Shown: positions 2,367 through 23,482, counted from the stretch's first letter. The stretch: DNA of 28,785 bases from Pseudomonadota bacterium (GCA_039797505.1 JBDKHS010000215.1:1-28785); one strand, 5' to 3'. Numbers and translations: made by a program. The notes: generated by a model from the letters alone, not told the origin.

Positions 2367-3494
2367 ATGTCCCCAACCCTAGATTTAAGCCTTGATTTAT
2401 TACAACGCGCCTCACTCACCCCCGATGATGCAGGCTGTCAACCACTGCTTGCGGAACGTTTACGCCCTTTAGGTTTTAAGATTGAACCCTTGCGTTTTGC
2501 CGATGTCGATAATTTGTGGGTGCGTTTTGGTGAGACCGCGCCTCTGTTTGTGTTTGCAGGGCATACCGATGTTGTGCCCACGGGCGATGCCAGCGCGTGG
2601 AAATATCCCCCCTTCACTCCCACCATTGACAACGGCATCTTATACGGACGTGGCGCGGCAGACATGAAAGGCGCGATTGCAGCGTTTGTCACAGCCTGTG
2701 AACGTTTTCTTGCCAAACATCCCCAGCCCAAAGGCTCAATTGCGTTATTAATCACCAGCGATGAAGAAGGGCCGTCGATTAATGGCACGGTGAAAGTGGT
2801 TGAACATTTGGAAGCGCGTCATGAAAAAATGAACTGGTGTTTAGTCGGTGAACCCACCAGCGGCACACAATTGGGCGACGCCGTGAAAAATGGACGGCGT
2901 GGCTCATTAACAGGCTATTTAAGCATCGAAGGCGTGCAAGGACATGTTGCTTATCCGCATTTAGCCGACAATCCAATTCACCGTTTTGCGCCCGCCCTGC
3001 AAGCCTTGTGTGATGAAGTTTGGGATCATGGCAATGAATTTTTCCCGCCCACGACTTTTCAAATTTCCAATATTCACGCGGGCACGGGCGCAACTAATGT
3101 GATTCCGCAAACGCTGGATGTGGTGTTTAATTTCCGTCACAGCACCGCCGTCACCAAGCCTGAATTGCAAGCACGGGTGGTGAAAATTTTGGAAACTGCG
3201 GGCTTGAAATATCAGTTGAAATGGGTCAATTCTGGTGAAGCTTTTCTAACTGCCAATGGCGAATTATTAGCAGCAACGCAGCAAGCCATTCAAGAAATCT
3301 GTGGAATTGAGACGGAGTTATCCACCAGCGGCGGCACATCTGACGGGCGTTTCATTGCCCCCACAGGCGCACAGGTTTTGGAGTTAGGTGTGTTAAATGC
3401 GACGATCCACAAAGTGAATGAAGCGGTTGCGGTGCAAGATTTAGAGAATTTATCGCGGATTTATGAACGTATTTTGGAAAAGTTGTTGGGATAA
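2367..3494 (+). CDS. dapE: Succinyl-diaminopimelate desuccinylase
   Basis: 375 aa M20 peptidase with [49 protein letters not shown] and HKVNE. Confidence 0.97.
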
Positions 3495-3652
3495 CCCAAA
3501 ACAGCGACCGAACATATTAGTCTTTCAATGTTCATGTGATGGTCACACGACTCTTGTAAGCTGGGTTTGATGTCAGAAACAGGTTCAAGGTGCGCTCTGT
3601 TTTTAGGCGACAGCATTCACGGTTTTTAAGGTCTTCCATGTGAGTCCGAAAG

Positions 3653-3738
3653 CTGTTTTACAGACTGTTTACAGACTGATTTCCAAGATATTTTTGTGGA
3701 AATATGCAATATTCTGAGACTAATAAATATGTTATACT
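3653..3738 (+). promoter_or_regulatory. Candidate promoter: tandem direct repeats plus an extended -10 element
   Basis: tttacagactg occurs twice (3657-3678). TG-t-TATACT at 3730-3738 lies upstream of the 3912 ORF. No good -35 hexamer. Confidence 0.35.
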
Positions 3739-3911
3739 TCAAAGCAGGTAAGATATTGTTTTTGTCATTTCAAAGTGACAGTATATTTTCAGAAAAAACC
3801 ACGATTTAACTATATAAATTAAGCGTTAAATCGCTTCCCCCTTGACTTACATTGATTGCTGAGTGGGAACTGCCAGTTAATGCTTAATCTTCACAGCATA
3901 GAGTCAACAAA

Positions 3912-4604
3912 ATGGACACAGTAACCAACACGCCGCGTCTCGTTTATACGACACCTACGGGAGAAAGCCAAATGGGCAATGAACAAACGTATGCCAACAC
4001 CTTGGATAAACAATTGCGCGTTGCTGAAGTCAGCTTACGTCAAGACGAACCCGCTGAAAAGCTGACCGCAGAAAACGTGCTGGATAATGCAGGCACAGTC
4101 GGCAATATCGACAAAATCCGCGATATTCTCTTTGGCGGACACATGCGCGATTATGACAAGCGTTTCAAGCGCATGGAAGATCGTTATTCGCAAGAAACCA
4201 CACACTTACGCGATGATTTAGCGCAACGCATCCGCGCCCTTGAAGAACTGTTAAACAGCGAAGTGGATGGTCTCACGGAAAAAGCGAAAACGGATCGTCA
4301 AGAACGTCAAGCCGCTCATCAAGAAGTGCTGTATACCGTCAACAGCCTGAAAAATGAATTGAATGCGCGCGTCACCCAATTAGATGAACAATTTGCTAAA
4401 GACGTGAAACAAATGCGTCAGCAAATGCACAGCAAGTTTCAAGAACTGGTGACGCAAATGCGTCAGCAAAATGATAACTTGGTGGGCATGGTTAAGCAGG
4501 AAGTTGGACATTTACAAGAAGACAAAGTCAGCCGCACTGATCTCGCTTCTTTCTTCAGTGAATTCGCCCTGCGTTTGAACAAAGACCCCAAAGCCGATAA
4601 GTAA
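3912..4604 (+). CDS. Uncharacterised long coiled-coil protein
   Basis: Heptad-rich helical sequence after a NIDKIRDILFGGHMRDYDKRFKRME motif, with no TM segment. The true start may be ATG 3972, which has GGAG about 8 nt upstream. Confidence 0.85.
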   Translation: MDTVTNTPRLVYTTPTGESQMGNEQTYANTLDKQLRVAEVSLRQDEPAEKLTAENVLDNAGTVGNIDKIRDILFGGHMRDYDKRFKRMEDRYSQETTHLRDDLAQRIRALEELLNSEVDGLTEKAKTDRQERQAAHQEVLYTVNSLKNELNARVTQLDEQFAKDVKQMRQQMHSKFQELVTQMRQQNDNLVGMVKQEVGHLQEDKVSRTDLASFFSEFALRLNKDPKADK

Positions 4605-4615
4605 GTTTTATCCCC

Positions 4616-4650
4616 CCGCTGCACACAGTTTGCATGCTGGTGTGCAGCGG
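4616..4650. other. Intergenic GC-rich hairpin
   Basis: Perfect 11-bp stem ccgctgcacac (4616-4626) / gtgtgcagcgg (4640-4650) between the coiled-coil gene and the next ORF. Confidence 0.6.
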
Positions 4651-4705
4651 CGAAAATAATTTTTTCCATTCTCTGCCTGACCGCCCCTATTTTTGACTAC
4701 GCCCA

Positions 4706-5713
4706 ATGGATGAATACACCCAACTACGCTCCTTGCTCTTACACGATGATCAACAACGTCTGGCGAATTTAGAGCAACAGCTTGGGAATTCTAAAGCCCT
4801 GAGCCAATCCATCGCGGCGGTTTTACCGACTGCCTTGCAAAATGCCGATACTGTCCCGCTACAATCTGCCCTCCAGCAACCTGTAGAAACCTGTATTAAA
4901 GAGGCAATGCAAAAAAATCCACAAAGTTTCGTCAGACCCTTACTCCCTGCAATGGTCGCACCCGTTAGAACAGTCGTTGCCGAAGCCTTACGCTCAATTC
5001 GTGAATATTTAAATTTACAACAACAGCAATTGACAGGCTTAGACGAGAAATCAGCCGCACTGACTCAGCAGCTTACCGAGCTAAATGATCGATTATTGCC
5101 CTTAGAGGAAACTCTGATTCGCTTTGCTGAATTAGAGCAACGCTTGAATGACACCGAGCACCGTACCCGTGACTTGGCTGACATCTTGCCCAACGCGATT
5201 CGCCAAGTGACCCAACAGGCAAATGTCCAACTTTCATCGCAACCGATGAAAGCCGAAGAATTAGCCGACTCGCTGAAAATTCCCGTCGAGCAATGTTTAA
5301 GACAATCGGTGAATGATGATGCACAAACCTTAGCCGACGCGCTGTTTCCCGTGATGGGGCCTGCGATTCGTAAATCGATTAACGAATCGATGAAAGCGAT
5401 GGTGGAAAAAATCAATGTCGCGGTTGAACAAAGCATTTCCCCGCAATCGGTGGCGTGGCGCATTGAATCCATTCGTCACGGCGTGCCGTATTCACAAATT
5501 GTGATGAAAAACACCTTGGTGTATCGGGTTGAACAAGTGTTCTTAATTCATCGCCAAACGGGTTTACTGATGCAACACGTCTCGCGTGAAGAAAGCGAAG
5601 TCACCGACAGCGATGCGGTTTCTGCCATGTTGACTGCGATTCAAGATTTTATTCGTGACTCGTTTTCATCGAATAAAAGTGATGAATTAGAACGTGCTGA
5701 AGTGGGTGAATAG
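4706..5713 (+). CDS. N-terminal cytoplasmic part of the OmpA-domain protein (helical repeats, coiled coil, start of a longin-like domain)
   Basis: 335 aa ending at TAG 5711-5713 in the middle of an apparent domain (VEQVFLIHRQTGLL...DAVSAMLTAIQDFIRDSF...ELERAEVGE*). Confidence 0.75.
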   Translation: MDEYTQLRSLLLHDDQQRLANLEQQLGNSKALSQSIAAVLPTALQNADTVPLQSALQQPVETCIKEAMQKNPQSFVRPLLPAMVAPVRTVVAEALRSIREYLNLQQQQLTGLDEKSAALTQQLTELNDRLLPLEETLIRFAELEQRLNDTEHRTRDLADILPNAIRQVTQQANVQLSSQPMKAEELADSLKIPVEQCLRQSVNDDAQTLADALFPVMGPAIRKSINESMKAMVEKINVAVEQSISPQSVAWRIESIRHGVPYSQIVMKNTLVYRVEQVFLIHRQTGLLMQHVSREESEVTDSDAVSAMLTAIQDFIRDSFSSNKSDELERAEVGE

Positions 5714-5716
5714 ACC

Positions 5717-7372
5717 GTGTGGCTGGAACGCTCACCCTTTGCCGTGCTGGCATGTGTGGTGCGCGGCATTGCGCCTTACGAATATAAAACCACGATGCGC
5801 GTCACTTTAGAAGCGGTGCACGCACGTTATGGCTTTTTGCTGGAAAATTTTGAGGGCGACAGCACGCCTTTAGAACCTTGTCGCCCCTTATTGCAACAAG
5901 CATTACAAGTTGAAATCAAGAAAAAAGATCAAGAAGGCAAGCCGCAAAATCGTTATTTTTCAAAATCTTTTATTGTGGTGCTGGTGCTTGTCGCGGGTGG
6001 TTTTGCGGCGTGGAATTATTGGCGATGGCAACAAGCGCAACAGTTTAACGCTTATTTAGAAACGCTGCGCCACAGCACAGGCATTACTATTTTAGAAAGC
6101 AAAATCGAAGGCGATCATATTCTGTTACGTGGTTTACGTGACCCACTCGCGCCAGACCCTGTGCAAATGGCAGCGCAATATAATTTGAATGCAGAACAAG
6201 TCAGCAGTCAGTGGGCGTTTTATCAGGATTTAAGCCCAGAATTTGTATTAAAACGTTTAACAGCCGCATTAAATCCTCCTGCTAATGTGAAATTCAATTT
6301 AACTAACGGGATTTTACAAGCCACAGGGCATGCTGATAAAAATTGGATTGATCAATTAAAACATACTGTACTGTTGATGGCGGGGCTGACCAAGCTCGAT
6401 GATAGCCAATTATTAGATAATAATGCGTATTTAGAAAAAACACGGGAACAATTTGAAGTTTTCTTGCTGACTTTGAAAGCCACGCAGGGCATTGTGGTGG
6501 TGTCTTCAGAAGTGAAAAATGGACATCGTGAAATAACAGGCTTGCGAGACCCGATTGCAGAAGACCCCGCGAAGTGGTTGCCTGATTTTCAGCTAGAAGA
6601 CATCGCGATGAATTGGACTCCGTATCAGGATTTAACGCCGTCTTTTGTGGAAAAACGCGCCCGTTTGCGTTTGGCTGTGCCTGAAACCGTGCAATTGAGC
6701 GTGAAAGAAGGGCGCATGAGCGTACAAGGCTACGCGCCTAAGGCATGGATTGAGCATGTGCAAACGGCTTGGCAAGGTATTGCAGGCGTAGAACAAGCGG
6801 ATTTCAGCCAGTTGTTAGAACGTGATGCTTATTTGCTGGCGTATGCGCAGCGTGAATTGTTGCCGCCCAAGAGTTTAAAATTAGAAGTTAAAGAGGGTAT
6901 TTTAAACTTTGATGGCTGGGTTGAAGATGCAGGCTTTGCCAAAATGCAGCAACAAGTGAAAGCTTTAGAGGGCTTTGAGTCGATTAAGTTGCAGAATTTA
7001 TTAAGCCGTGAAAAATTCCGTCAGTTGACGGTGCAACGCTTAGAAAAAATCATGGTTTATTTCAATCAGGATGCGGGTTTTGGCGATCATCAAGAAAATA
7101 ATTTGCGCGGGGTTTTGGATTTGTGGCAAAGATTATTGACGGTAACGCCCACGCCACCGCGTTTACAATTGATTGGGCATACTGATGGTATTGGTACGCA
7201 AGAACAAAATCGTCGCTTAAGTATTCAACGTGCTGAGGCAGTTTATCGTTGGTTGGTGAATCAAGGGCTTGCTGAGGCAAAGTTAGAACCTGCTTATCCC
7301 AGTCATATTCCTTTTGGGGAAACTGTGGTGAACTTTAAGGAGCGGCGTGTGAGTTTTAAAGTTTTGTTTTGA
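5717..7372 (+). CDS. C-terminal part: TM helix, periplasmic repeats and OmpA-like peptidoglycan-binding domain
   Basis: Same frame as 4706-5713. TM helix FIVVLVLVAGGFAAW, duplicated GLRDP...YQDL repeats, and OmpA_C motif GHTDGIGTQEQNRRLSIQRAEAV. Confidence 0.8.
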   Translation: MWLERSPFAVLACVVRGIAPYEYKTTMRVTLEAVHARYGFLLENFEGDSTPLEPCRPLLQQALQVEIKKKDQEGKPQNRYFSKSFIVVLVLVAGGFAAWNYWRWQQAQQFNAYLETLRHSTGITILESKIEGDHILLRGLRDPLAPDPVQMAAQYNLNAEQVSSQWAFYQDLSPEFVLKRLTAALNPPANVKFNLTNGILQATGHADKNWIDQLKHTVLLMAGLTKLDDSQLLDNNAYLEKTREQFEVFLLTLKATQGIVVVSSEVKNGHREITGLRDPIAEDPAKWLPDFQLEDIAMNWTPYQDLTPSFVEKRARLRLAVPETVQLSVKEGRMSVQGYAPKAWIEHVQTAWQGIAGVEQADFSQLLERDAYLLAYAQRELLPPKSLKLEVKEGILNFDGWVEDAGFAKMQQQVKALEGFESIKLQNLLSREKFRQLTVQRLEKIMVYFNQDAGFGDHQENNLRGVLDLWQRLLTVTPTPPRLQLIGHTDGIGTQEQNRRLSIQRAEAVYRWLVNQGLAEAKLEPAYPSHIPFGETVVNFKERRVSFKVLF

Positions 7373-7405
7373 TTAAGAAAGAGTAGAAAATTGAGTAGTC
7401 GTAGT

Positions 7406-7454
7406 AGTCGTAGGGTGGAATAGCGTAGCGTATTCCACCAAGAAACGTGATAAC
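7406..7454 (+). repeat. REP-like GTAG hairpin repeat (family D)
   Basis: agtcgtagggtggaatagcgtagcgtattccaccaagaaacgtgataac, with an identical 49-bp copy in reverse orientation at 14421-14469. Confidence 0.85.
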
Positions 7455-7561
7455 TTTTAAATGCAACATTTAAAGACTAAACAAGTGTTTAGCCCTAGGA
7501 CGTGTCATCAATTAAGTGAAGTGGTCTGTTTCAGCGGCGTGTAGCGCAGATTTAAATCTGA

Positions 7562-7820
7562 AACTGCGCCCCCAACTCCCTAAAGGGGAGAGCTAGTGCA
7601 AGAAGCATAATGCTTTTTAAAACATAGGATTACGCTAGTTTTTCTTTTTCTTAATTTCATATATTTGTGTATTTAGCCGCTTATTTTGTCTATTTACGAC
7701 CCTTTTTTAACTTATTTTTATAACGAGTCTTTTATAAAAATAGCAGACTAAATATTATAACTATATGATAATAAATTATTCTTCTTGCATTGGCTCTCCC
7801 CTTTAGGGGATTTAGGAGCT
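7562..7820. mobile_element. Long family-A element with an AT-rich interior (MITE-like)
   Basis: Inverted ends ccctaaaggggagagctagtgcaagaag and cttcttgcattggctctcccctttagggg, sharing terminal motifs with 901-977. Confidence 0.75.
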
Positions 7821-7830
7821 TGTTTAAGCA

Positions 7831-7947
7831 TAGGAGTTACGCAGTTGAATCGGTAACTGTTTGATTTTACTAGAAACATGATTGTGCGGCGCACAATAAT
7901 AACTCATTGTAAATAAAAGAATTAATATTTCAACTGCGTAACTCCTA
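7831..7947. mobile_element. 117-bp MITE (family C) with 19-bp terminal inverted repeats
   Basis: taggagttacgcagttgaa (7831-7849) / ttcaactgcgtaactccta (7929-7947), a perfect match with TA ends. A half copy lies at 10913-10950. Confidence 0.85.
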
Positions 7948-7965
7948 GGGTTGGGCGTTTTTCTT

Positions 7966-8039
7966 AGACCTGCTAGGTTTAAAAAACCTAGCAGGTCTTG
8001 AATCAATCATGATGCAGGACTGCGAGCACTGCCAGTCCT
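7966..8039 (-). repeat. Family B core (palindrome plus AGGACTGGCAGTGCTC)
   Basis: agacctgctaggttt-aaa-aaacctagcaggtct (7966-7998) followed by gagcactgccagtcct. This is the 1153-1219 layout in reverse. Confidence 0.85.
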
Positions 8040-8063
8040 ATGACCATCCAAGTTACGAAAACC

Positions 8064-10484
8064 TCAAACCCTCACCTCATGCTGCCAAACCCGCAACACC
8101 GAATACTCCTGCAACAAACGACTAAACACCGCCCCCTGCAATTCATAAACCGTGACCGCCGTCACCGCCCGATAACTCACAGGACACACGCAAGGCTGCA
8201 ATAATGCCTCCTCACCAAAATAATCCCCCGCCATCAAAGTTCCATAATCCAATTGGGCGCGTGAAATCCGAATCACCCCACGCGTGACCAAATATAAACT
8301 GTGGGTTAAATCGCCCTGTGCACATAGATATTGACCGCTGCGCAATTCTCGGCAGCATAATTGCTGGGTGATTTGTGCACAAACTTCCCGCGAGAGCTGT
8401 TTAAATCCCTGTAAACTTTGCAATAAATCCAACACGCTTAAATGCGGTGGAACAATACTTTGTTGCGTGGTTTGTAATTGTTGCTGCAAAGCTTTTAACA
8501 GCGGGTGCGCCAAGCTGGGCGACAAAATTCCGCGTTGCACTTGCGCGGTAATCGCTTCATATTCCGCATGTAGCACCAAACGCGCCGCAACTTGTTCCTG
8601 CATTGCACTGACAAATTCCGCAAATTGTTCGGTGGTGCTATCGAGCCGCGCCCGTGCCGAATCTTGCCAACGCCGATAATTCGAGCGCACTTTTTCCACC
8701 ACTTCAGGACGCGCCATATTCACCGCCGCAATTTCTTCTAAACGCGCCATCACCCGTAAATTGCCTTGATGTCGCCCCCAAGCTTCTTCATATTCACGCG
8801 CAGTTTCCCGCGCCCGCCATGCGATAACGCCTTGCTTTATCAGTGGAATCAGCTGCAATAAATTCAAGCAACGTTGTTGAAAACGTTCATATTCAGGCGA
8901 GTGTAAAGTGACACGCGGCAATTTGCCCTCGTGCTGCAAACCATCAATTTGCAAGGCGACGGAATAGCTCAAATTACGATACGCCGCCTCCGACAATTGC
9001 CCATACAAAAACATGTCGTGATAAAAGGCTTTTTCCGTGGCAAAGGTTTGAATAAACAGCAAACATTGTGCGGCTTCCGAGCTGGGAACGCTTTGCCACA
9101 ATTCCGCTAATTCCATTTGTTGAATGCGGAGCGCGTTTTCACAGCGTTGGCGTTGACGTTCTGCAATCCTGGTGGAAAATAAGCCGCCTTGTTGCAGTTG
9201 TGGAATCGCTTGTAAAACTTGTTGTTTTGCAGTGAGTTGGCTTTCCAAAATTGCCATTTTATCAATCAAACTGGGCTGGTTGAATTTTTGCCACGCAAGC
9301 AACGCGGGCAAACTCACGCCCTGAATTAATAAGCTTAAATAACAGACGCTTAAGCTAATCGCTAATAATTGGGGAAAATAACTGAGTTCTGCAAAACTGC
9401 TGACAATGACAAGCGGCATCACTCCATGAATGCCTGACCAAATCAACACGGGGCGATATTGTGGCGCGTAACGGACATAAGGCGGTAAGCCTTGCAACAA
9501 GGGTAACAGCAGTGATAATAGCAAGCCGCGCATCACCCAACCTGCGACAAGAATCGCGACACTCAGGGGTAATAAATCAATGACTAATAAAATATCCACT
9601 TGCAAGCCCGCCACCAAAAACAGTAAAGCACTCATCACTTGGCTGATGTAGCGCAGTTGCAGGCGAATATAGCGTTTAGTCGCGGGGTCGAGCCGATTAT
9701 GTTCCCAAGTGCTGAGATGCAAGCCGACACTGATCACCGCAAAACTGCTGCTGAGTTGAATCGCTTCGGCAAACCACGCGCTGCCATACAGCAATAATAA
9801 AATCAGGCTGATGCTGAAAAAAGGATGTTGCGGCAATTGTTTAGAAAAAATCGCGGCAAGACTGGCTAAACCCCAACCGCCAATCATGCTGCCTGCAATT
9901 TGCCAGGCTAATTCACTGGGTAATTCGGGCGCGTGAATGCCGTATTGAAATAGCGTATGAATTGTCACGATGGCAAACGCGCTGTGTAATAAACTTTCGC
10001 CTGCTAATAAATGCTGGAAACGCGGGCTGAAACTGACTTGGCGTAAATTTTTTAAGGCAATCGCACTGTCACTGATACTTAACACCAGCGCGAGCATAAC
10101 AATTGCCATCGGGTTTAAGCTGTGCCAAAGCTCAGATAAACCATACTGCAAAACTCCCATGCCCAGCCCCATGCCGCCTAAGCCAATGCACAGAATTGGC
10201 ACTAAATAACGCCGCAAATGTTGAGTTTCTAAACCAAAAGCAGCGGTGAAAAGTAGTGTCGGTAAAAATAATTTATTAACAACAAATCCCGTAATAAATT
10301 CATTGTCTTGAACTAATTTAATCACCACAGGAAAAATATTCCAGGTCGCCAAACTTAGCCCAATCAGCGGTAATAACAAATAAAAATACAGCCAGTTGCC
10401 GCGACTGAGCAACCAGCTCAACATAATGATGAGTAAAGAGGTGAGCAGTAAATTTTCACTGAAGAACAGATTTAAAATCGTCAT
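8064..10484 (-). CDS. CPA1-type cation/proton antiporter-like protein with C-terminal cyclic-nucleotide-binding domain
   Basis: Multi-TM N-terminal half with FLPTLLF, GESLL and WSGIHG, a helical linker, and CNBD motifs QGD...LYLVTRG and GDYFGEEALL. ATG 10484 is preferred over the track start 10562. Confidence 0.85.
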   Translation of the reverse strand: MTILNLFFSENLLLTSLLIIMLSWLLSRGNWLYFYLLLPLIGLSLATWNIFPVVIKLVQDNEFITGFVVNKLFLPTLLFTAAFGLETQHLRRYLVPILCIGLGGMGLGMGVLQYGLSELWHSLNPMAIVMLALVLSISDSAIALKNLRQVSFSPRFQHLLAGESLLHSAFAIVTIHTLFQYGIHAPELPSELAWQIAGSMIGGWGLASLAAIFSKQLPQHPFFSISLILLLLYGSAWFAEAIQLSSSFAVISVGLHLSTWEHNRLDPATKRYIRLQLRYISQVMSALLFLVAGLQVDILLVIDLLPLSVAILVAGWVMRGLLLSLLLPLLQGLPPYVRYAPQYRPVLIWSGIHGVMPLVIVSSFAELSYFPQLLAISLSVCYLSLLIQGVSLPALLAWQKFNQPSLIDKMAILESQLTAKQQVLQAIPQLQQGGLFSTRIAERQRQRCENALRIQQMELAELWQSVPSSEAAQCLLFIQTFATEKAFYHDMFLYGQLSEAAYRNLSYSVALQIDGLQHEGKLPRVTLHSPEYERFQQRCLNLLQLIPLIKQGVIAWRARETAREYEEAWGRHQGNLRVMARLEEIAAVNMARPEVVEKVRSNYRRWQDSARARLDSTTEQFAEFVSAMQEQVAARLVLHAEYEAITAQVQRGILSPSLAHPLLKALQQQLQTTQQSIVPPHLSVLDLLQSLQGFKQLSREVCAQITQQLCCRELRSGQYLCAQGDLTHSLYLVTRGVIRISRAQLDYGTLMAGDYFGEEALLQPCVCPVSYRAVTAVTVYELQGAVFSRLLQEYSVLRVWQHEVRV

Positions 10485-10571
10485 GATAAGTACACAAGTG
10501 GCAGGCGTATCCTGCGCCCCATTTGAGAATGAGAGGGTTCTCGCTATAGTTATGAAACCCAAATAAAAGAA

Positions 10572-10970: not shown

Positions 10971-11172
10971 TATAGAACCGATTTGAAATCACCCTTATTC
11001 TGAAGTTAAGCTTCAAACTGAATAGTTGATGTTGTCAAAAAAGTTAGGTGTAGGTACAAATTTATTCGCATGCGTTTTTAATTCGAGAGCGTTGTGCGAA
11101 TAAATTTGCACCTACAACCAGCTCAACCTCGTAAACTTAGCTTAAAATGTAAAATTCCAAATCGGTTCTATA
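10971..11172. mobile_element. 202-bp MITE with TATAGAACCGATTTG ends and a nested GTAG hairpin
   Basis: tatagaaccgatttgaaat (10971-10989) / attccaaatcggttctata (11154-11172), 18/19 match. Nested inverted repeat gtaggtacaaatttattcgca...tgcgaataaatttgcacctac at 11050-11115. Confidence 0.8.
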
Positions 11173-12069
11173 ACCCTATCTATATCAAAATTTCAGAGGG
11201 ATATAAAGATGGTTTTTATAGACATGATGATAAAGACGGTAGGGGGTTGTATCAATTAGCAGATATGGCTAGCCCCAATCCTCGTCCTAATATGATGTAT
11301 AACTGGATTGGTTTTTCTTATCCAGTTAAAGGTTGGCGTTATGAAATGAATACTATGCAAAAACTGCACGATGAAGGTAGAATTCACTATCCAAAACAAA
11401 AAGATGGTTCTTTTGATTTAACAAAGAGACCGCGTCTTAAACGATATTTAAATGAGCAAAAAGGGAAATTATTGGGCGATGTTTGGACAGATGTTCAAAA
11501 CGTACAAGCCCATGCTAAAGAACGCATAGGTTATCCCACCCAAAAGCCAGAATTGTTGTTTGAACGCATTATCAACATGGCCAGCAATGAAGGCGACATA
11601 ATCCTAGACCCGTTTGTAGGCGGGGGAACAACTGTGGCAGTTGCAGAGAAACTTAAACGTCAAGGGATAGGGATAGACCAATCTGTACAAGCGGTAAAAG
11701 TTTCACAGTTTCGACCCGATAAACAACGTGATTTATTTTCACAACCCTTTGTTGTGCAACTGCATAAATATGATTATGACACGCTGAGATATTCGGACGC
11801 TTTCGAGTTTGAATCTTTCATTGTCACGCAATACGGCGGCACGCCAAACACAAAACAGCGTGGTGATTTTGGAATTGTTGGAATTTTGCCTATGAAGAAG
11901 AAGCGGGCTTCAAAGCGGACGTGATGATCGATAAGGAAGGCAAGCAAGCCCACAAGTTTAGAGCAGGCAATCACTCGATAGCGGTGAAAGTCGTTGATAA
12001 TGACGGTTTAGAAAGTTTGGAAGTGGTTAAACTAAAAGTGAATGGGGTGTGAAAGTTACTGAGAGCTAA
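11173..12069 (+). pseudogene. Truncated beta-class N6/N4 DNA methyltransferase with internal deletion and frameshifted C-terminus
   Basis: GDVWTD, YPTQKP and ILDPFVGGGTT (motif I) are present but the N-terminal DPPY is missing. The reading switches frame at about 11875 to WNFAYEEEAGFKADV...IAVKVVDNDGLESLEVVKLKVNG. Confidence 0.8.
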
Positions 12070-14268: not shown

Positions 14269-14509
14269 TAATTAACCTGAGTTCGGGATAAGAGAAGTTG
14301 TTAAGCAGTCATAACTCAATGATGAGGTTAGCCTTTTGTATTGTGCTAACGCTCCAGCGGCGAGGATTTTACAAGCTTATGCCGTACAAGGAGAGCCTTA
14401 TCGATTGCATCATGTCTAGCGTTATCACGTTTCTTGGTGGAATACGCTACGCTATTCCACCCTACGACTAAATTATCTACTCTTTCTTATCCCGAACTCA
14501 GGTTAATTA
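14269..14509. mobile_element. MITE or deleted IS with 25-bp perfect inverted ends, carrying a nested family D repeat
   Basis: taattaacctgagttcgggataaga (14269-14293) / tcttatcccgaactcaggttaatta (14485-14509). Family D copy at 14421-14469. Confidence 0.85.
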
Positions 14510-17633: not shown

Positions 17634-18068
17634 ATGAGTATGGCAATGACAATTCATGTCGATATTGTGAGTGCGGAAGGCGAAATTTTTTCAGGTTTGG
17701 CAGAAATGGTTATCGTGCCTGCATATAATGGCGAAGTGGGCATTTTACCGCGTCACGCCCCGTTTTTATCGACTTTGCGGGCAGGCACGGTGATGTTGCG
17801 CATGGCAGGTGGGCGAGAAGATTGTTTTTATGTTTCTGGCGGAATTTTGGAAGTGCAGCCGCACATGGTCACAGTGCTCGCTGACACCGCATTACGGGCG
17901 AATGATATTGATGAAGCGGCGGCGATAAAGGCAAAACAACATGCTGAGCATTTGTTAAACGATCATCAAAGCAATTTTGAATATGCCAAAGCGCAAACAG
18001 AATTAGCAGAAACCGTGGCGCAGTTGCAAACTTTGACCTGCATGCGCAAACGTAATACGCGGCAATAA
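17634..18068 (+). CDS. atpC: F0F1 ATP synthase epsilon subunit (stand-alone)
   Basis: TIHVDIVSAEGEIFSG, GEVGILPRHAP, VSGGILEVQP, VLADTALRANDIDEAAA. ACAGGAG RBS upstream. Confidence 0.95.
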   Translation: MSMAMTIHVDIVSAEGEIFSGLAEMVIVPAYNGEVGILPRHAPFLSTLRAGTVMLRMAGGREDCFYVSGGILEVQPHMVTVLADTALRANDIDEAAAIKAKQHAEHLLNDHQSNFEYAKAQTELAETVAQLQTLTCMRKRNTRQ

Positions 18069-18212: not shown

Positions 18213-21200
18213 CTATTCCCCAACCCCTCCGACAGGCGTAATCACCGGTTTTTCCCAAGCTCCCGTAATGTGATATTGATAATTAATCGCCTGTTCGATT
18301 TCAGATTGCAGCAATTTTTGTACGATTAACACCGCAGCCCCCACGCCCAAGCCGCCCACCAATGCCCCCGCTACAGGAATCGTGTTGGATACATGCGGAA
18401 TTACTGTAACTGTTTGATCATATTGACGCGCCGTTAAATCGGTACGCCCTTGGATTTCAATTTTTGCAGCAGGCGCAATCAATTGCAGATTTTGTGTGTC
18501 CGCAAAACCCTTGCTAAAATTAAAATCTCCGATAATTTTAGAAAAACCAAAGCCTTGTGAAAATACATCGCTGAAATCTAAAATTAAACGGCGCGGCAAG
18601 GTTTGTAAATCAAACAAACCCAACACCCGCCCCAAACCCGGCTCAAAATCCACGATTTGCCCTTCTGCAATCGCAAGATGTAATTTCCCACGCAATTTTT
18701 TCACTGAAAAATCCAAGGGACTGCCTTCCCAATAACTTTCCCCCGACAATTCCGTTTCCCCTCCACGCAAGGGCGGCGGTTCATAGCCAAACGCTTGTAA
18801 TAATTCGCCCAAATCATCACTGCGCACTTTCGCCTGCAAATGGGTATACTGCGGCAGCGTTGCCAATTGCCACAAACCATTAGCAAACCATTGAAAATGC
18901 GGATGAATGACCTGTAAATTATCCAATTCCCAACCCGCCACGCTGGGACGCAATGCCAGTTTAAGCTGCCCTAACACACGTTGATCAATTTGTAATTGCT
19001 CAATATTGCCCTCAACAATGGGCAAAGGACGCGGATCGTTGAATTTTGCAGGAGTGTTTTCAACCAATTTTTCAGGAAGTTTTAAATGCAGCTTTTTGAA
19101 ATTGAAACTAATTTTTTCAGGCGTAGTTTTTAAGAATTGGATTTTACCGTGTAGCGCATCGCTTTTAAAAGAGGCATCGATTTGTTCTGTTTGGATTTTT
19201 GCCTTGAGTTTCACTTGATTAAAAACTTGTCCTAAGATTTCTAACTTATTGACTTGCAAACTAATATTCTTTGCAATTTTTGAGGGCTTGAGTTGCGGAG
19301 CTTCTGAAAACACCTTGTGCCACGCGCTCAGCGACAATTCGGGTAAATTGCCATCCACAGTCAAGCCCTGCATTGCCGTCAATTGCGGATTGAGTGCGTT
19401 CAATTTCACCGTGGCGCGACTCAATTTGCCCGCTTGCAACTCAAACGCGCTGTGTAACCAATTCCCATATTCAATCCATAAATTATCTTGCTCAGTTTCT
19501 GAAAGCCGCGCCGTCAGAGTAAATAATTGGCTTTGCTCAGATTTTTTCTGAAATGGAAAGGGTAAATCGCTACTTAAGCCTTTTAAATCACTGGATAAAT
19601 ATAAATAGGTGTCCCTGACCGTGGGCGCGGCATTGGGGCTGTGGCGCGGCAATTCTAAACGCAATTGCCACGGACTTGCACCTTGCAAATGCTTGTAAAA
19701 TGGCAAGTTTCCAAAATCTGCATCGATTTGGCTCAATTGTTGTTTGATAAAATCCGCATCCGCCTTGCCTGCCAAATTCACTTGAACGATGTTGCGCCCT
19801 TGCACGTGCGTGGTTTTCAGCCCCAAAGTCACGGGTTTATTAAATAATAAAGCTTTTAATTGTTCCGCATTTAACTGCTTATTATCAAACAGTAAGATGC
19901 CTTTGACTTGTTGTAAAGTAATCCCTAATTGCGTATTTTTAATTTTTAGGTCTTTAAAATTTAATTTTCCCCAGACTTTTTCTTCATCATGCGAAGCCTC
20001 TGCCAACGGGATAAGCAGCTTTAACTCAAGCTCCATCGCGCCACTGAGTTCGACATGCCCTTTTTTTAAATCTACATTATTTTTTAACGGACTTTCTTGT
20101 AAATAACGCGCCCCATCTTGTGCCGTGCCTATTAATTTGCCTGTAATATTCAAAAATGGAAAATCTGCGGATAAATCAGGAATTTCAGCTAAAACTTGTT
20201 GTAATTGGCTTTGAAAAATGCGCCCTTGTTGTGCAGTCACGTTGAGTTTACGCCCGACGATGTCCACGGTGGCGGCAATTTCGTGAATTGGGGGATAGCG
20301 CGGGTCGAAATTTAACTGTGCATTTTTCGCTAAGCCTTTGAAAATAAAATTTTTAGTGTTTTCATCGAATAATTTATCTACTGCGCCTTCCAAAGTGGCA
20401 GAGGCTTCGCTGATGTCGCCCCCGACCAAAGCTTTTTCCAACCACGCAACCGTATCGGGTAGATATTGTTCAGGTAAGTAACTGTGCACACGGGCAATTT
20501 TTCCATTGCGCAATTCTGCCCGCAGATGCAATTGCGGCATGGCTTGCTCGGGTAAATCCACGCTGCCACTGAGTTTCACTTGCATTCCGTGTTCAACCGC
20601 CTGAATTGCTTCGGTATGAATTTGCCAAGATTTTTCCAAACGTTGCCAATTGAGCTGTCCCTGCATTTGCGTCAACATCATCGGTAAACGGTACAATTTT
20701 GGCGCGGTTAAGGTGAATTGCGAGTTTTCCAATTGGAAACTGCCCTGCTGCGGGCGCAAGGTTAAACTGCCTGTGATGCCGCTAATCCCAAATTGCGCCG
20801 CCTGTGAATGCGCCCCGATTTGTACACAACGCGCTTGCAGATTCCAGTCTTGCGCATGGTGATATTCCAGTTGTAGCCGCGCACATTGCCCCTGGACTTG
20901 CCAAGTCGCCGCAGTTTGCAATATTGGCAAATGCAAAGGCGTGGCTAAGGCACTCAGATAGGGCGGCAACCATGCCAGAGATAAATTGTCGGTTTCTAGA
21001 CTGAATTCGCCCGTCGCCTGCCAACGCGCCCGAAAACTGCTTAACACCTTGTGATGATTGGCGACTTTAATCTGGGGCTGCACTTCGATAGCCCAGTTTT
21101 CAGCCTGTGCCATGCCGTGAAAATTTGCAATTAAATGGGTGGCGGGCGCAGTGAAGGTTTGTAATTGCAGTTGTCCTGCCACAGTTTTCAAGGCGTTATC

Positions 21201-21899
21201 TTGCCAATGTAGTGCGGCATTGAGTTCTAAATGGCTGGTGTGCCCTGTTTTGGCAGCCAGTAATTTCGCCGCCAGCTTCCAATGTTGCACCGCATCGGCA
21301 TGTTTTTCGATAGCCCATGAAACTGCTTGTAATTGTAGCGGGGCTTGCTGGGGCAGGGTGAAATTAACGCGGTCTAAATTCAGAATTAAATCCGTGCGTT
21401 GCAACCATGCACTGAGCGCGTTTTCAAATTTGGAAGGGCTGGCGGGTTCGGGCGGAACACTGGGAATAATCGGGAGGAAAAAACCTTGGAGCTGTAATTG
21501 CCCCGCACTGTCAGTGAGTAGGTTTAATTCAGGGGCGCGTACATGAACTTGATGTGTGACCCATTGGCGTTGCCACAGCGATTCCCACAAATCAAGGCTG
21601 ACTTCGACTGAGTCGAGCGTAAAAGTAGTATTAGGCTGTTGGGCGGAATGTACGGTTAATTTTTGCAGTGCCAGCGTGGGCTTGCTGCCCAGCCAGTAGG
21701 TTTCGAGCTTTGCAAACTGCAATTTGTGCTGCCAATGGCTGTTAATCCAAGTCAGCAACGCGGTTTGATGGTCAGCAAGCCGGGTAAATGTCCACAGCCC
21801 CAACACGAAACCTAAACATAGCAGCAGTAAAAATATTCGTGCGACACGCCAAGCGGTGTGTAAACAACGAATATAAAAGCACAAACACGAGTGCACCAT
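18213..21899 (-). CDS. yhdP: YhdP/AsmA2-family envelope (phospholipid-bridge) protein
   Basis: 1228 aa with an N-terminal TM anchor, beta-rich body, WLEKALVGG, and C-terminal GRVLGLFDLQTLPRRLILDFSDVF...YHITGAWEKP. Directly downstream of rng. Confidence 0.9.
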   Translation of the reverse strand: MVHSCLCFYIRCLHTAWRVARIFLLLLCLGFVLGLWTFTRLADHQTALLTWINSHWQHKLQFAKLETYWLGSKPTLALQKLTVHSAQQPNTTFTLDSVEVSLDLWESLWQRQWVTHQVHVRAPELNLLTDSAGQLQLQGFFLPIIPSVPPEPASPSKFENALSAWLQRTDLILNLDRVNFTLPQQAPLQLQAVSWAIEKHADAVQHWKLAAKLLAAKTGHTSHLELNAALHWQDNALKTVAGQLQLQTFTAPATHLIANFHGMAQAENWAIEVQPQIKVANHHKVLSSFRARWQATGEFSLETDNLSLAWLPPYLSALATPLHLPILQTAATWQVQGQCARLQLEYHHAQDWNLQARCVQIGAHSQAAQFGISGITGSLTLRPQQGSFQLENSQFTLTAPKLYRLPMMLTQMQGQLNWQRLEKSWQIHTEAIQAVEHGMQVKLSGSVDLPEQAMPQLHLRAELRNGKIARVHSYLPEQYLPDTVAWLEKALVGGDISEASATLEGAVDKLFDENTKNFIFKGLAKNAQLNFDPRYPPIHEIAATVDIVGRKLNVTAQQGRIFQSQLQQVLAEIPDLSADFPFLNITGKLIGTAQDGARYLQESPLKNNVDLKKGHVELSGAMELELKLLIPLAEASHDEEKVWGKLNFKDLKIKNTQLGITLQQVKGILLFDNKQLNAEQLKALLFNKPVTLGLKTTHVQGRNIVQVNLAGKADADFIKQQLSQIDADFGNLPFYKHLQGASPWQLRLELPRHSPNAAPTVRDTYLYLSSDLKGLSSDLPFPFQKKSEQSQLFTLTARLSETEQDNLWIEYGNWLHSAFELQAGKLSRATVKLNALNPQLTAMQGLTVDGNLPELSLSAWHKVFSEAPQLKPSKIAKNISLQVNKLEILGQVFNQVKLKAKIQTEQIDASFKSDALHGKIQFLKTTPEKISFNFKKLHLKLPEKLVENTPAKFNDPRPLPIVEGNIEQLQIDQRVLGQLKLALRPSVAGWELDNLQVIHPHFQWFANGLWQLATLPQYTHLQAKVRSDDLGELLQAFGYEPPPLRGGETELSGESYWEGSPLDFSVKKLRGKLHLAIAEGQIVDFEPGLGRVLGLFDLQTLPRRLILDFSDVFSQGFGFSKIIGDFNFSKGFADTQNLQLIAPAAKIEIQGRTDLTARQYDQTVTVIPHVSNTIPVAGALVGGLGVGAAVLIVQKLLQSEIEQAINYQYHITGAWEKPVITPVGGVGE

Positions 21900-21919: not shown

Positions 21920-23482
21920 CTAAGTCAGGACAATGTCATATTGTTCTTGTCCATAAGAACTTTCTACTTGGAAACGGATTGGGCGGTTAATAAATTCTTC
22001 TAATTGGGCAACGCTGGCAGATTCTTCATCCAGCACCATGTCCACCACTTCTTGCGAGGCGATGACTAACACCTGCTGATTTTCGATTTCAAACTGGCGG
22101 GATTCACGCAGAATTTCTCGGAAAATTTCATAACAAATGGTTTCAGGAGTTTTAATTGTGCCGCGCCCGCTGCAAGTGGGGCAGGTTTTACACAACACAT
22201 GTTCCAAGCTTTCGCGGGTACGTTTGCGGGTCATTTGCACCAAGCCCAGCGAAGACACCTCGCTAATATGGCTCTTGGTGTGGTCGCGTTCCAAACATTT
22301 TTCCAAGGTGCGCAACACTTGCCGCCGATGTTCTGCGTCGGTCATGTCGATAAAATCGAGAATGATAATCCCGCCCAAATTGCGGAGGCGTAATTGGCGG
22401 GCGATGGCTTGCGCGGCTTCAAGATTGGTTTTAAAAATCGTTTCTTCTAAATTGCGGCTGCCCACAAATGCGCCCGTGTTCACGTCAATCGTGGTCATGG
22501 CTTCGGTTTGGTCAACCACCAAATAACCGCCTGATTTTAATTGTACTTTGCGCTCTAAAGCTTTGGTAATTTCGTCTTCAATATTGTAGAGATCGAAAAT
22601 GGGACGCTCGCCCGGATAATGTTCAATCAGCGGAATTAAATCGGGGATAAATTTCTGGGCAAAACTGATCACTTCGACGTAAGTTTCTCGGGAATCAATC
22701 CGCACTTTTTCAATGGTTGTGCCCATCAAATCGCGAATGGTGCGAATCACCAGTGATAAATCTTCATAAATCAAGGAGCTGGGTTTTGCCGTCTGTTCTT
22801 TTTCTTTGATGTCTTTCCACAAGCGTGTCAGAAAGTCCATATCCGCACACAGCATTTCTTCAGTGCAACCTTCGGCGGCAGTGCGAATAATAAATCCGAA
22901 ATTTACTTTTCCCGTGCGTGATTGTGTGCTGGAAAAAGTTTCTAATTTCACGTTGGCATCATCACTGCTCTGTTCGACCGAACTTTGTCCCGTATAACCC
23001 AAGTGTTTGAGCACGATTTCTTTCAGACGATGCCGTTCTTCTTCGCGCTCAATACGGGTAGAAATGCCGATGGTATTGGGGGAATAGGGCAAAATCACCA
23101 CGTAGCGCGAGGGAATTGAAATCTCGGTGGTCAGCCGCGCCCCTTTGCTGCCGAGCGGGTCTTTAATCACTTGCACTAAGGAAGTTTGCCCTTCGTGCAT
23201 TAATTCATTAATCGATGCTTCGGTTTTATTGCGCCCGAATTCCATTTGTGATTGCAAGGTGACGATGTCGGAGGCGTGCAAAAATGCGGCACGTTCCAGC
23301 CCAATATCCATAAACGCCGCCTGCATTCCGGGTAAAACTCGGCAGGCACGTCCTTTGTAAATATTGCTGACTAAGCCGCGTTTGCTGGTGCGTTCAATCA
23401 TCATTTCTTGCAATACGCCATTTTCCACCATCGCAACCCGAATTTCTCGAGGTGTAATGTTGATGAGAATTTCTTCACTCAT
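21920..23482 (-). CDS. rng: Ribonuclease G
   Basis: GNIY-like SNIYKG S1 start, DPLGSKGARLT, TEAMTTIDVNTG, IARQLRLRNLGGIIILDFIDM and the zinc-link CPTC. Confidence 0.96.
   Translation of the reverse strand: MSEEILINITPREIRVAMVENGVLQEMMIERTSKRGLVSNIYKGRACRVLPGMQAAFMDIGLERAAFLHASDIVTLQSQMEFGRNKTEASINELMHEGQTSLVQVIKDPLGSKGARLTTEISIPSRYVVILPYSPNTIGISTRIEREEERHRLKEIVLKHLGYTGQSSVEQSSDDANVKLETFSSTQSRTGKVNFGFIIRTAAEGCTEEMLCADMDFLTRLWKDIKEKEQTAKPSSLIYEDLSLVIRTIRDLMGTTIEKVRIDSRETYVEVISFAQKFIPDLIPLIEHYPGERPIFDLYNIEDEITKALERKVQLKSGGYLVVDQTEAMTTIDVNTGAFVGSRNLEETIFKTNLEAAQAIARQLRLRNLGGIIILDFIDMTDAEHRRQVLRTLEKCLERDHTKSHISEVSSLGLVQMTRKRTRESLEHVLCKTCPTCSGRGTIKTPETICYEIFREILRESRQFEIENQQVLVIASQEVVDMVLDEESASVAQLEEFINRPIRFQVESSYGQEQYDIVLT

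Follow-up and report, generated by a model that had tools for sequence, protein, structure and literature searches.

The Group 1 Rup (Rup1) system was delineated by Wuichet and Søgaard-Andersen (Genome Biol Evol 2014, PMC4316618) as a conserved neighbourhood of four genes, encoding a coiled-coil cytoplasmic protein, a protein composed of an unknown domain, a transmembrane (TM) segment and an OmpA domain, the small GTPase Rup, and a signalling output protein. That description was computational, no Rup member having been characterised at the time, and it gave no fold for the unknown domain or for the periplasmic linker (PMC4316618). The Group 1 Rup GTPase lacks the Gln of the G3 motif, and the N-terminal region of the output contains an invariant Gln that was proposed to be supplied in trans (PMC4316618). 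In the cyanobacterium Nostoc punctiforme, according to the same paper, a Group 1 Rup is transcribed. In published trees, Rup1 stands beside Rab, Ras, Rho and Ran (PMC4316618; bioRxiv 10.1101/2024.02.28.582541). Here we analysed a contig of 28,785 nucleotides (nt) from a Pseudomonadota bacterium (GCA_039797505.1 JBDKHS010000215.1:1-28785), the whole of which we call the window, and in particular two adjacent genes at 3912-7372, which we call gene A and gene B. The original prediction, made from the sequence of the window, had seen in this pair a trans-envelope module whose architecture matched no characterised system; this part of it does not stand, as the four-gene layout had already been described computationally in 2014 as Group 1 Rup (PMC4316618). 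Genes A and B are probably two of the four components of a Group 1 Rup small-GTPase signalling system.

The Rup neighbourhood and its split form

The gene order around the pair was surveyed in 80 loci, which were kept from at least 584 confirmed matching stretches in a scan of species-representative genomes, and every open reading frame (ORF) of each locus was clustered. These loci span Gammaproteobacteria, Acidobacteriota, Desulfobacterota, Alphaproteobacteria, one cyanobacterium and one planctomycete. A gene A homolog lies immediately 5' of gene B in 71 of the 80 loci, and the pairing proposed for the window therefore recurs, in the same order and on the same strand, in several phyla. Immediately 3' of gene B, 67 loci encode a Ras-family GTPase of about 168 amino acids (aa), and in linked loci the ORFs of gene B and the GTPase frequently overlap or nearly abut. 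These in-operon GTPases match PF00071 at 1e-28 to 1e-32. The usual order is gene A, gene B (typically about 580 aa), the GTPase and a variable larger signalling protein, which by Pfam is a hybrid histidine kinase, a PAS protein, an adenylate/guanylate cyclase or an HD-GYP-type HD_5 protein. Gene A corresponds to the component that the Group 1 Rup description names the 'coiled-coil cytoplasmic protein'. Relatives of gene B are numerous: more than 1100 were scored among 8000 candidates from a 90%-clustered protein set, and a search with the gene B core (residues 180-410) recovered 6076 representatives clustered at 50% identity with E<=1e-3, of which 2293 reached E<=1e-30.

No GTPase is encoded within the window; downstream of gene B, 7373-8063 contains no plus-strand ORF of at least 60 aa and one 60-aa minus-strand ORF, and a reverse-strand antiporter gene follows. 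The source genome is a metagenome-assembled genome (MAG) of 2.19 Mb in 408 contigs, 65% complete, and its rup gene lies on another contig, C184 (3167 nt; L082:1492-1992, minus strand). The 166-aa product matches PF00071 at 3.4e-29, has the G3 motif WDIAGN, without Gln, and shares 63% identity with an in-operon Rup. The gene immediately following rup encodes a HisKA-HATPase-REC hybrid kinase (L082:2-1450, minus strand), the N-terminal domain of which aligns with the outputs of other loci and carries an invariant Gln (Q114, in a 13-sequence alignment). All four components are thus present in the window's genome and match the published layout point by point, with the difference that rup is not in the A-B neighbourhood and that A-B and Rup-kinase occupy separate contigs. 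A 99%-complete genome of the same genus has an intact 888-aa B on its contig C5 and Rup-kinase on C11, and its flanking genes show no synteny with the window. From this we conclude that the genus does have a split cassette, made up of two-gene units, A-B and Rup-kinase, on separate contigs.

In a join test, the spacer downstream of gene B and the rup contig had only a 34-nt repetitive extragenic palindromic (REP) element in common. The REP pattern GTAGGGTGGAATA-N(8-11)-TATTCCACC occurs in 154 copies in the MAG (88 forward, 66 reverse), as against 0 for a reversed control pattern, and in many cases the copy is no more than about 80 nt from the end of a contig (C122:1-30, C135:1-30 and C184:3119-3151 are examples). 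It is probable that this element breaks up the assembly, and because C184 ends in it, we place an assembly break there.

Co-occurrence was followed in 55 genomes of the window's family, which are related, so that the counts overstate independence. The B core was found in 43 of these genomes, Rup in 45 and A in 36, and 10 had none of the three. Every genome with B also has Rup (43/43) and every genome with A also has B (36/36), and Rup occurs alone in two incomplete genomes. Rup lies within 3 kb of B in only about half of the B-containing genomes; the parts of the system are retained together even where they are unlinked. The link to small GTPases that the original prediction had raised is thereby borne out, both by the 67 linked loci and by all B-containing genomes of the family, but the partner is a Ras-family Rup and not MglA.

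The arrangement varies further among relatives. In G005, G023 and G047, A, B and Rup are on separate contigs or hundreds of kb apart, and in several large relatives (L004, L009, L010, G039, G040, G043 and G044) two tandem gene B paralogs precede a single Rup gene.

The retention of Rup also bears on a different explanation, in which A and B would form a GTPase-independent envelope scaffold or landmark, that is, a cytoplasmic coiled coil anchored through the membrane to the wall at sites such as poles or septa, in which the longin-like domain described below would do no more than dimerise. A-B is a separate two-gene unit in the genus with no GTPase nearby, A, B and Rup can each lie apart in the family, longin and roadblock domains dimerise, and the BON-like domains of B (see below) are similar to the motifs from which secretion systems build their inner-membrane rings (CdsD, YscD and PrgH). 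However, B was never found without Rup in the 43 B-containing family genomes, the GTPase lies directly 3' of B in 67 of 80 loci outside the family, and the fourth conserved gene always encodes a signalling enzyme, so that we consider a scaffold of this kind quite unlikely. With signalling enzymes as its conserved partners, the pair seems more likely to serve signal transduction than to be a static scaffold.

Domain architecture of the two proteins

Gene B encodes a bitopic inner-membrane protein, in which a cytoplasmic helical region and a longin-like domain are followed by a TM helix, periplasmic units and an OmpA-like domain (Table 1). The features on which the original prediction had been built (a soluble gene A product, a helical duplication, a coiled coil, the compact domain, the TM helix, the periplasmic repeats and an OmpA_C domain with its Asp and Arg) were all recovered at their predicted positions. 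Matching by Pfam and NCBIfam gave nothing above threshold for residues 1-440; DUF445 scored 20 bits, where the cut-off is 33.8.

An AlphaFold2 (AF2) model of residues 180-410 was calculated from 78 homolog sequences. Its mean predicted local distance difference test score (pLDDT) is 73 overall and about 80-95 over the compact domain, for which DSSP of the model gives the topology beta-beta-alpha-beta-beta-beta-alpha-alpha. Conservation in the family is highest in this domain, which has the invariant or near-invariant motifs YRVEQVFLIH..GLL, D.DAVS.M.TAIQDF.RDSF and TVWLE.GP.AVLA.V.RG. Against the PDB, Foldseek returned almost only longin chains (AP sigma, zeta-COP, Sec22b, Mon1-Ccz1, TRAPP and VAMP7) and roadblock chains (LAMTOR, MglB, MglC and the C-terminal domains of Rag), with a best E-value of 4e-4. 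In an independent, all-against-all wide VIA-align search, all 50 listed entries were longin/SRX or roadblock, with longin first. The best match was VAMP7 (4afi_B; Z 12.9, root-mean-square deviation (rmsd) 2.6, 119 aa), and the longin matches had Z values of 10-12.9 (rmsd 2.6-3.4, 117-132 aa aligned). Roadblock matches ranked under longin, at Z 7.9-8.9 over about 100 residues (8.6 for both MglB 3t1r and the Streptomyces roadblock protein 3kye); as the two folds are related, these values do not sharply separate them. Identity to the structural matches is 6-15%, or about 10%. The longin/roadblock-like fold that had been suspected from the residue pattern is thus supported by the AF2 model, Foldseek and the VIA search, and the domain leans to longin. 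In the literature that we searched, we found no published longin or roadblock assignment for a Rup partner, although one may exist.

The longin fold is used by eukaryotes to dock and activate Rab-type GTPases. The predicted domain of B shares its topology with the eukaryotic longin platforms (VAMP7/Sec22/Ykt6, the N-termini of AP sigma and mu, Mon1-Ccz1, TRAPP, DENN and SRX) at the Z values and alignment lengths given above, and B is, like them, associated with a Rab/Ras-like GTPase, in this case genomically. In contrast to these platforms, the B domain is joined to a TM helix and to a periplasmic part that binds the cell wall, has only about 10% identity to them and has no Pfam match. The predicted likeness is one of fold and would not imply exchange activity or common descent. 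A related fold is also found in the MglB/Roadblock-LC7 partners of MglA-type GTPases, including CvnB and MfpD of the actinobacterial conservons, and the conservons likewise couple a bacterial small-GTPase module to a histidine kinase. The differences are that the GTPase here is the Ras/Rab-like Rup rather than MglA-like, that the B domain is closer to longin, with two C-terminal helices, and that B is membrane-anchored rather than a small soluble dimer.

The helical region preceding the longin-like domain is duplicated in the window. The two copies (residues 51-108 and 185-242) align with a local score of 82, against 26.3 +/- 4.9 for shuffles (z 11.3; 0/500 reached the score), and a second, upstream profile match within the same gene B ORF was found in five other genomes. 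In the AF2 model, copy 2, the one conserved throughout the family, folds into two helices (model residues 4-25 and 27-62), predicted at low to medium confidence. On the C-terminal side of the longin-like domain, a basic KKK...R..K stretch precedes the TM helix, and for this reason we assign gene B an N-in topology.

The periplasmic part consists of two and a half repeat units. The motif GLRDP recurs at nt 6131 and 6539, a spacing of 136 aa; unit 1 aligns with unit 2 at a score of 236, against 27.5 +/- 4.9 for shuffles (z 43), and for the half unit z is 11 with unit 2 and 6.8 with unit 1. A hidden Markov model (HMM) of the repeat finds one unit in ordinary members of 580 aa and 2 to 7 in long gammaproteobacterial forms. 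From these counts, the repeat is therefore an ancestral module that was amplified in the window's gene B. An AF2 model of one unit, from 109 sequences, has a pLDDT of 94.7 and two alpha/beta subdomains; Foldseek matched it to BonA (1.8e-6), OsmY (3.2e-6), DolP (2.6e-5) and the periplasmic domain of CdsD (2.6e-5), and in the VIA search Z was only about 6 per subdomain. Pfam gave zero matches on the window's own units, even at E 10, and its BON model (PF04972) was barely over the cut-off of 27 in two homologs, at 27.3 and 31.1 bits. The unit is thus, with moderate confidence, dual-BON-like. As in the dual-BON proteins OsmY, DolP and BonA, each unit is modelled as two BON-like alpha/beta domains; B differs from them in having its units repeated in tandem, 2.5 times here and as many as 7 times in relatives, in their attachment to a large cytoplasmic signalling domain and in the lack of a Pfam BON match to the window's units.

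The OmpA-like domain matches PF00691 at 38.1-38.5 bits (cut-off 27.2), over profile positions 21-75 of 98 only. D827 (GHTD) and R842 (LS..RA) are invariant in the alignment, that is, the Asp and Arg of the peptidoglycan site are kept. The order TM, BON-like and OmpA-like is presumably also that of ArfA (Rv0899) of Mycobacterium tuberculosis, which we take to combine BON with an OmpA-like domain.

In comparison with the published Group 1 Rup description, the unknown domain and the linker are thus modelled here as longin-like and dual-BON-like, respectively. The lineage of the window has features of its own: the cassette is split, the N-terminal helical motif is duplicated, with a coiled-coil spacer, the periplasmic units number 2.5 rather than one, and gene B has a private amber codon, which is considered below.

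Gene A lies 101 nt upstream of gene B on the same strand, and its translation contains no signal peptide and no TM or hydrophobic helix. The conserved core comprises residues about 60-227, with R70, F74, G75 and R208 invariant in the alignment. Searches of Pfam, NCBIfam, PADLOC and the PDB gave matches at the level of coiled coils or amphipathic helices only, and the ESM Atlas gave only unnamed bacterial clusters. An apolipoprotein-like identity was rejected: PF01442 reached 23 bits against a cut-off of 90, and we take this match, together with that to a PDB profile of ApoA-IV (2.9e-10), to reflect a common amphipathic-helix periodicity rather than homology, and to be at most a hint of membrane binding.

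Weak matches of both genes also raised the question of whether the pair resembles Zorya or MotAB and would form a stator or an anti-phage system, with B as its peptidoglycan-anchored subunit. Gene A matches ZorA_2 of NCBIfam at 30 bits and ZorA1 of PADLOC at 28 bits, and gene B matches ZorB at 22 bits. However, the ZorA matches are confined to the coiled-coil tail and fall far under the curated cut-off of 100 bits, those to ZorB are confined to the OmpA-like motif, and relatives have a GTPase and signalling enzymes next to the pair, not ZorC and ZorD. In addition, gene A has no TM helices and hence no MotA/ExbB-type channel domain, and the TM helix of B (FIVVLVLVAGGFAAWNYW) has no Asp. The Zorya or MotAB identity is contradicted by the sequence, and we regard it as extremely improbable.

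The amber codon and a candidate envelope-to-GTPase relay

Gene B had been described as one long reading frame. It is indeed a single frame of 888 codons, but it is open only if a TAG codon, which the original prediction had noted, is read through. This codon falls at residue 336, a position that is Tyr or Phe in all homologs and was ancestrally encoded by TAC (Tyr). At 5713, contigs of four public runs, each from a different study (wastewater, groundwater, freshwater and an unlabelled metagenome), have C, and thus TAC. Over 1001 bases (5200-6200), the window differs from these four assemblies only at 5713 (G/C), 5731 (C/T), 5737 (C/G) and 5764 (C/G). All four sites are third codon positions within 52 nt, and the changes at 5731, 5737 and 5764 are synonymous; the cluster may represent a short patch specific to the strain or a consensus of mixed strains. 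Sixteen runs labelled wastewater, sludge, groundwater and freshwater are listed with sequence near-identical to 5200-6200 (word share 0.90-0.92), and four of them were confirmed; because the word share does not exceed 0.92 in any of the 16, the TAG allele of the window was not seen elsewhere. Two sister species have TAC at residue 336, gene B is uninterrupted over 888 codons in the 99%-complete genome of the same genus, and an intact protein near-identical to the gene B product exists (P0002).

In the window itself TAG is an ordinary stop, ending the genes at 18213-21899 and 21920-23482. Recoding or programmed read-through of TAG was therefore ruled out, given these two terminated long genes and the TAC of the relatives. 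As the four other assemblies and the two sister species all carry TAC, the TAG is either a private nonsense allele or a consensus error. The change lies inside the longin-like domain and, if real, would inactivate gene B.

It is conceivable that gene B is a pseudogene in the window's genome and that the two ORFs are functionless remnants of a decaying system. The position of the TAG in the most conserved domain of gene B, the use of TAG as a normal stop in the window, and TAC in all relatives and in the four other assemblies are what would be expected of such decay. On the other hand, the TAG is the sole lesion across 888 codons, the three further differences from the four assemblies in 5200-6200 are synonymous, a MAG that is 65% complete in 408 contigs may contain consensus errors, and a restart at GTG 5717 is conceivable. 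We regard decay as a serious but somewhat doubtful explanation.

For this system, a relay can be proposed in which the state of the envelope would be passed from B (with A) to Rup and from there to a kinase phosphorelay. The OmpA-like and dual-BON-like periplasmic part would tie B to peptidoglycan, and possibly to envelope lipids, and these modules suggest that the signal input is the state of the cell envelope. The gene A protein may bind the helical/coiled-coil region of B. By analogy with Mon1-Ccz1, TRAPP, DENN, Ragulator and MglB, the longin-like domain could dock Rup and set its nucleotide state or its location. Rup would then act on the Gln-bearing N-terminal domain of the output, which in the window's genome is the hybrid histidine kinase. 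The direction of signalling is a proposal, and B could act as guanine nucleotide exchange factor (GEF), GTPase-activating protein (GAP) or recruiter.

Several points weigh against such an assignment. Rup is unlinked to A-B in the window's genome, and gene B may be dead in the window's strain owing to the TAG. The longin assignment comes from a predicted model with a mean pLDDT of 73, a best Foldseek E-value of 4e-4 and an identity of about 10%, the compact domain matches no longin or roadblock model of Pfam, and a common fold is no proof of a common function. We infer all contacts among B, A and Rup, and experimental study of any Group 1 Rup system was absent from the literature searched.

A bolder version of the proposal would make B a membrane-spanning protein that is coupled to the cell wall and acts as exchange factor or docking platform for a Rab/Ras-like GTPase, analogous to a receptor-to-G-protein relay. 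In its strongest form, the longin-like domain of B would share ancestry with the eukaryotic Rab GEF platforms, and the longin-Rab partnership would be older than eukaryotes and possibly have been acquired together with Rup1-type GTPases. We regard this version as speculative and unlikely. The Rup1 GTPases are the bacterial proteins nearest to eukaryotic Rab, Ras, Rho and Ran, and a predicted longin fold in their membrane partner leads to a concrete hypothesis, namely that the cytoplasmic domain of B binds Rup and alters its nucleotide state. The natural variation of this lineage, with a split cassette whose parts are retained together and an amplified periplasmic unit, could guide such experiments. 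Taken alone, the window is a modest result: it adds a further copy of a system already described, in which B probably carries a private nonsense allele or a consensus error.

Feature coordinates and flanking genes

Table 1. Features of the gene A-gene B region, in window coordinates.
Feature	Coordinates	Strand	Description
Gene A	3912..4604	+	230-aa soluble helical/coiled-coil protein; ORF call
Gene B	4706..7372	+	888 codons in one frame, 4706-5713 + 5717-7372, with one TAG at the join
Helical motif copy 1	4856..5029	+	Residues 51-108, PVETCIKEAMQKNPQSFVRPLLP...
Coiled-coil spacer between helical motifs	5030..5257	+	Residues about 109-184; length differs widely, with large indels in the homolog alignment
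Helical motif copy 2	5258..5431	+	Residues 185-242, PVEQCLRQSV...LADALFPVMGPAIRKSINES; family-wide conserved copy
Compact longin-like domain	5516..5920	+	Residues 271-405
In-frame amber codon	5711..5713	+	Residue 336, first residue of strand beta4 of the longin-like domain
Single TM helix	5969..6022	+	Residues about 422-439, FIVVLVLVAGGFAAWNYW; read from the translation
Periplasmic unit 1	6035..6442	+	Residues 444-579; tandem BON-like pair in the model
Periplasmic unit 2	6443..6850	+	Residues 580-715; repeat HMM match
Half unit	6851..7030	+	Residues 716-775; second BON-like subdomain only; HMM positions 69-127 of 128
OmpA-like peptidoglycan-binding domain	7043..7369	+	Residues about 780-888
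REP-like palindrome	7410..7439	+	38 nt 3' of the gene B stop; further window copy at 14436-14465 (-)

The REP-like palindrome downstream of gene B may be a transcript-end hairpin. A promoter and terminator scan of 3450-8100 gave counts not above those of shuffles, and an Rfam search of 3400-8200 gave zero matches.

Among the other genes of the window, an ATP synthase epsilon-subunit gene at 17634-18068 (plus strand) lies 3' of ZnuABC-like transporter genes, and the remaining scanned ORFs of the window gave no match to ATP synthase families. A 276-aa ORF at 11094-11924 (plus strand) matches an N6/N4 DNA methylase profile at positions 120-219 of 221 only and may encode a truncated or divergent methylase. 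The antiporter gene convergent with gene B (8064-10562, minus strand) is an 832-aa ORF with a membrane domain of the Na+/H+ exchanger family and a C-terminal cyclic-nucleotide-binding domain.

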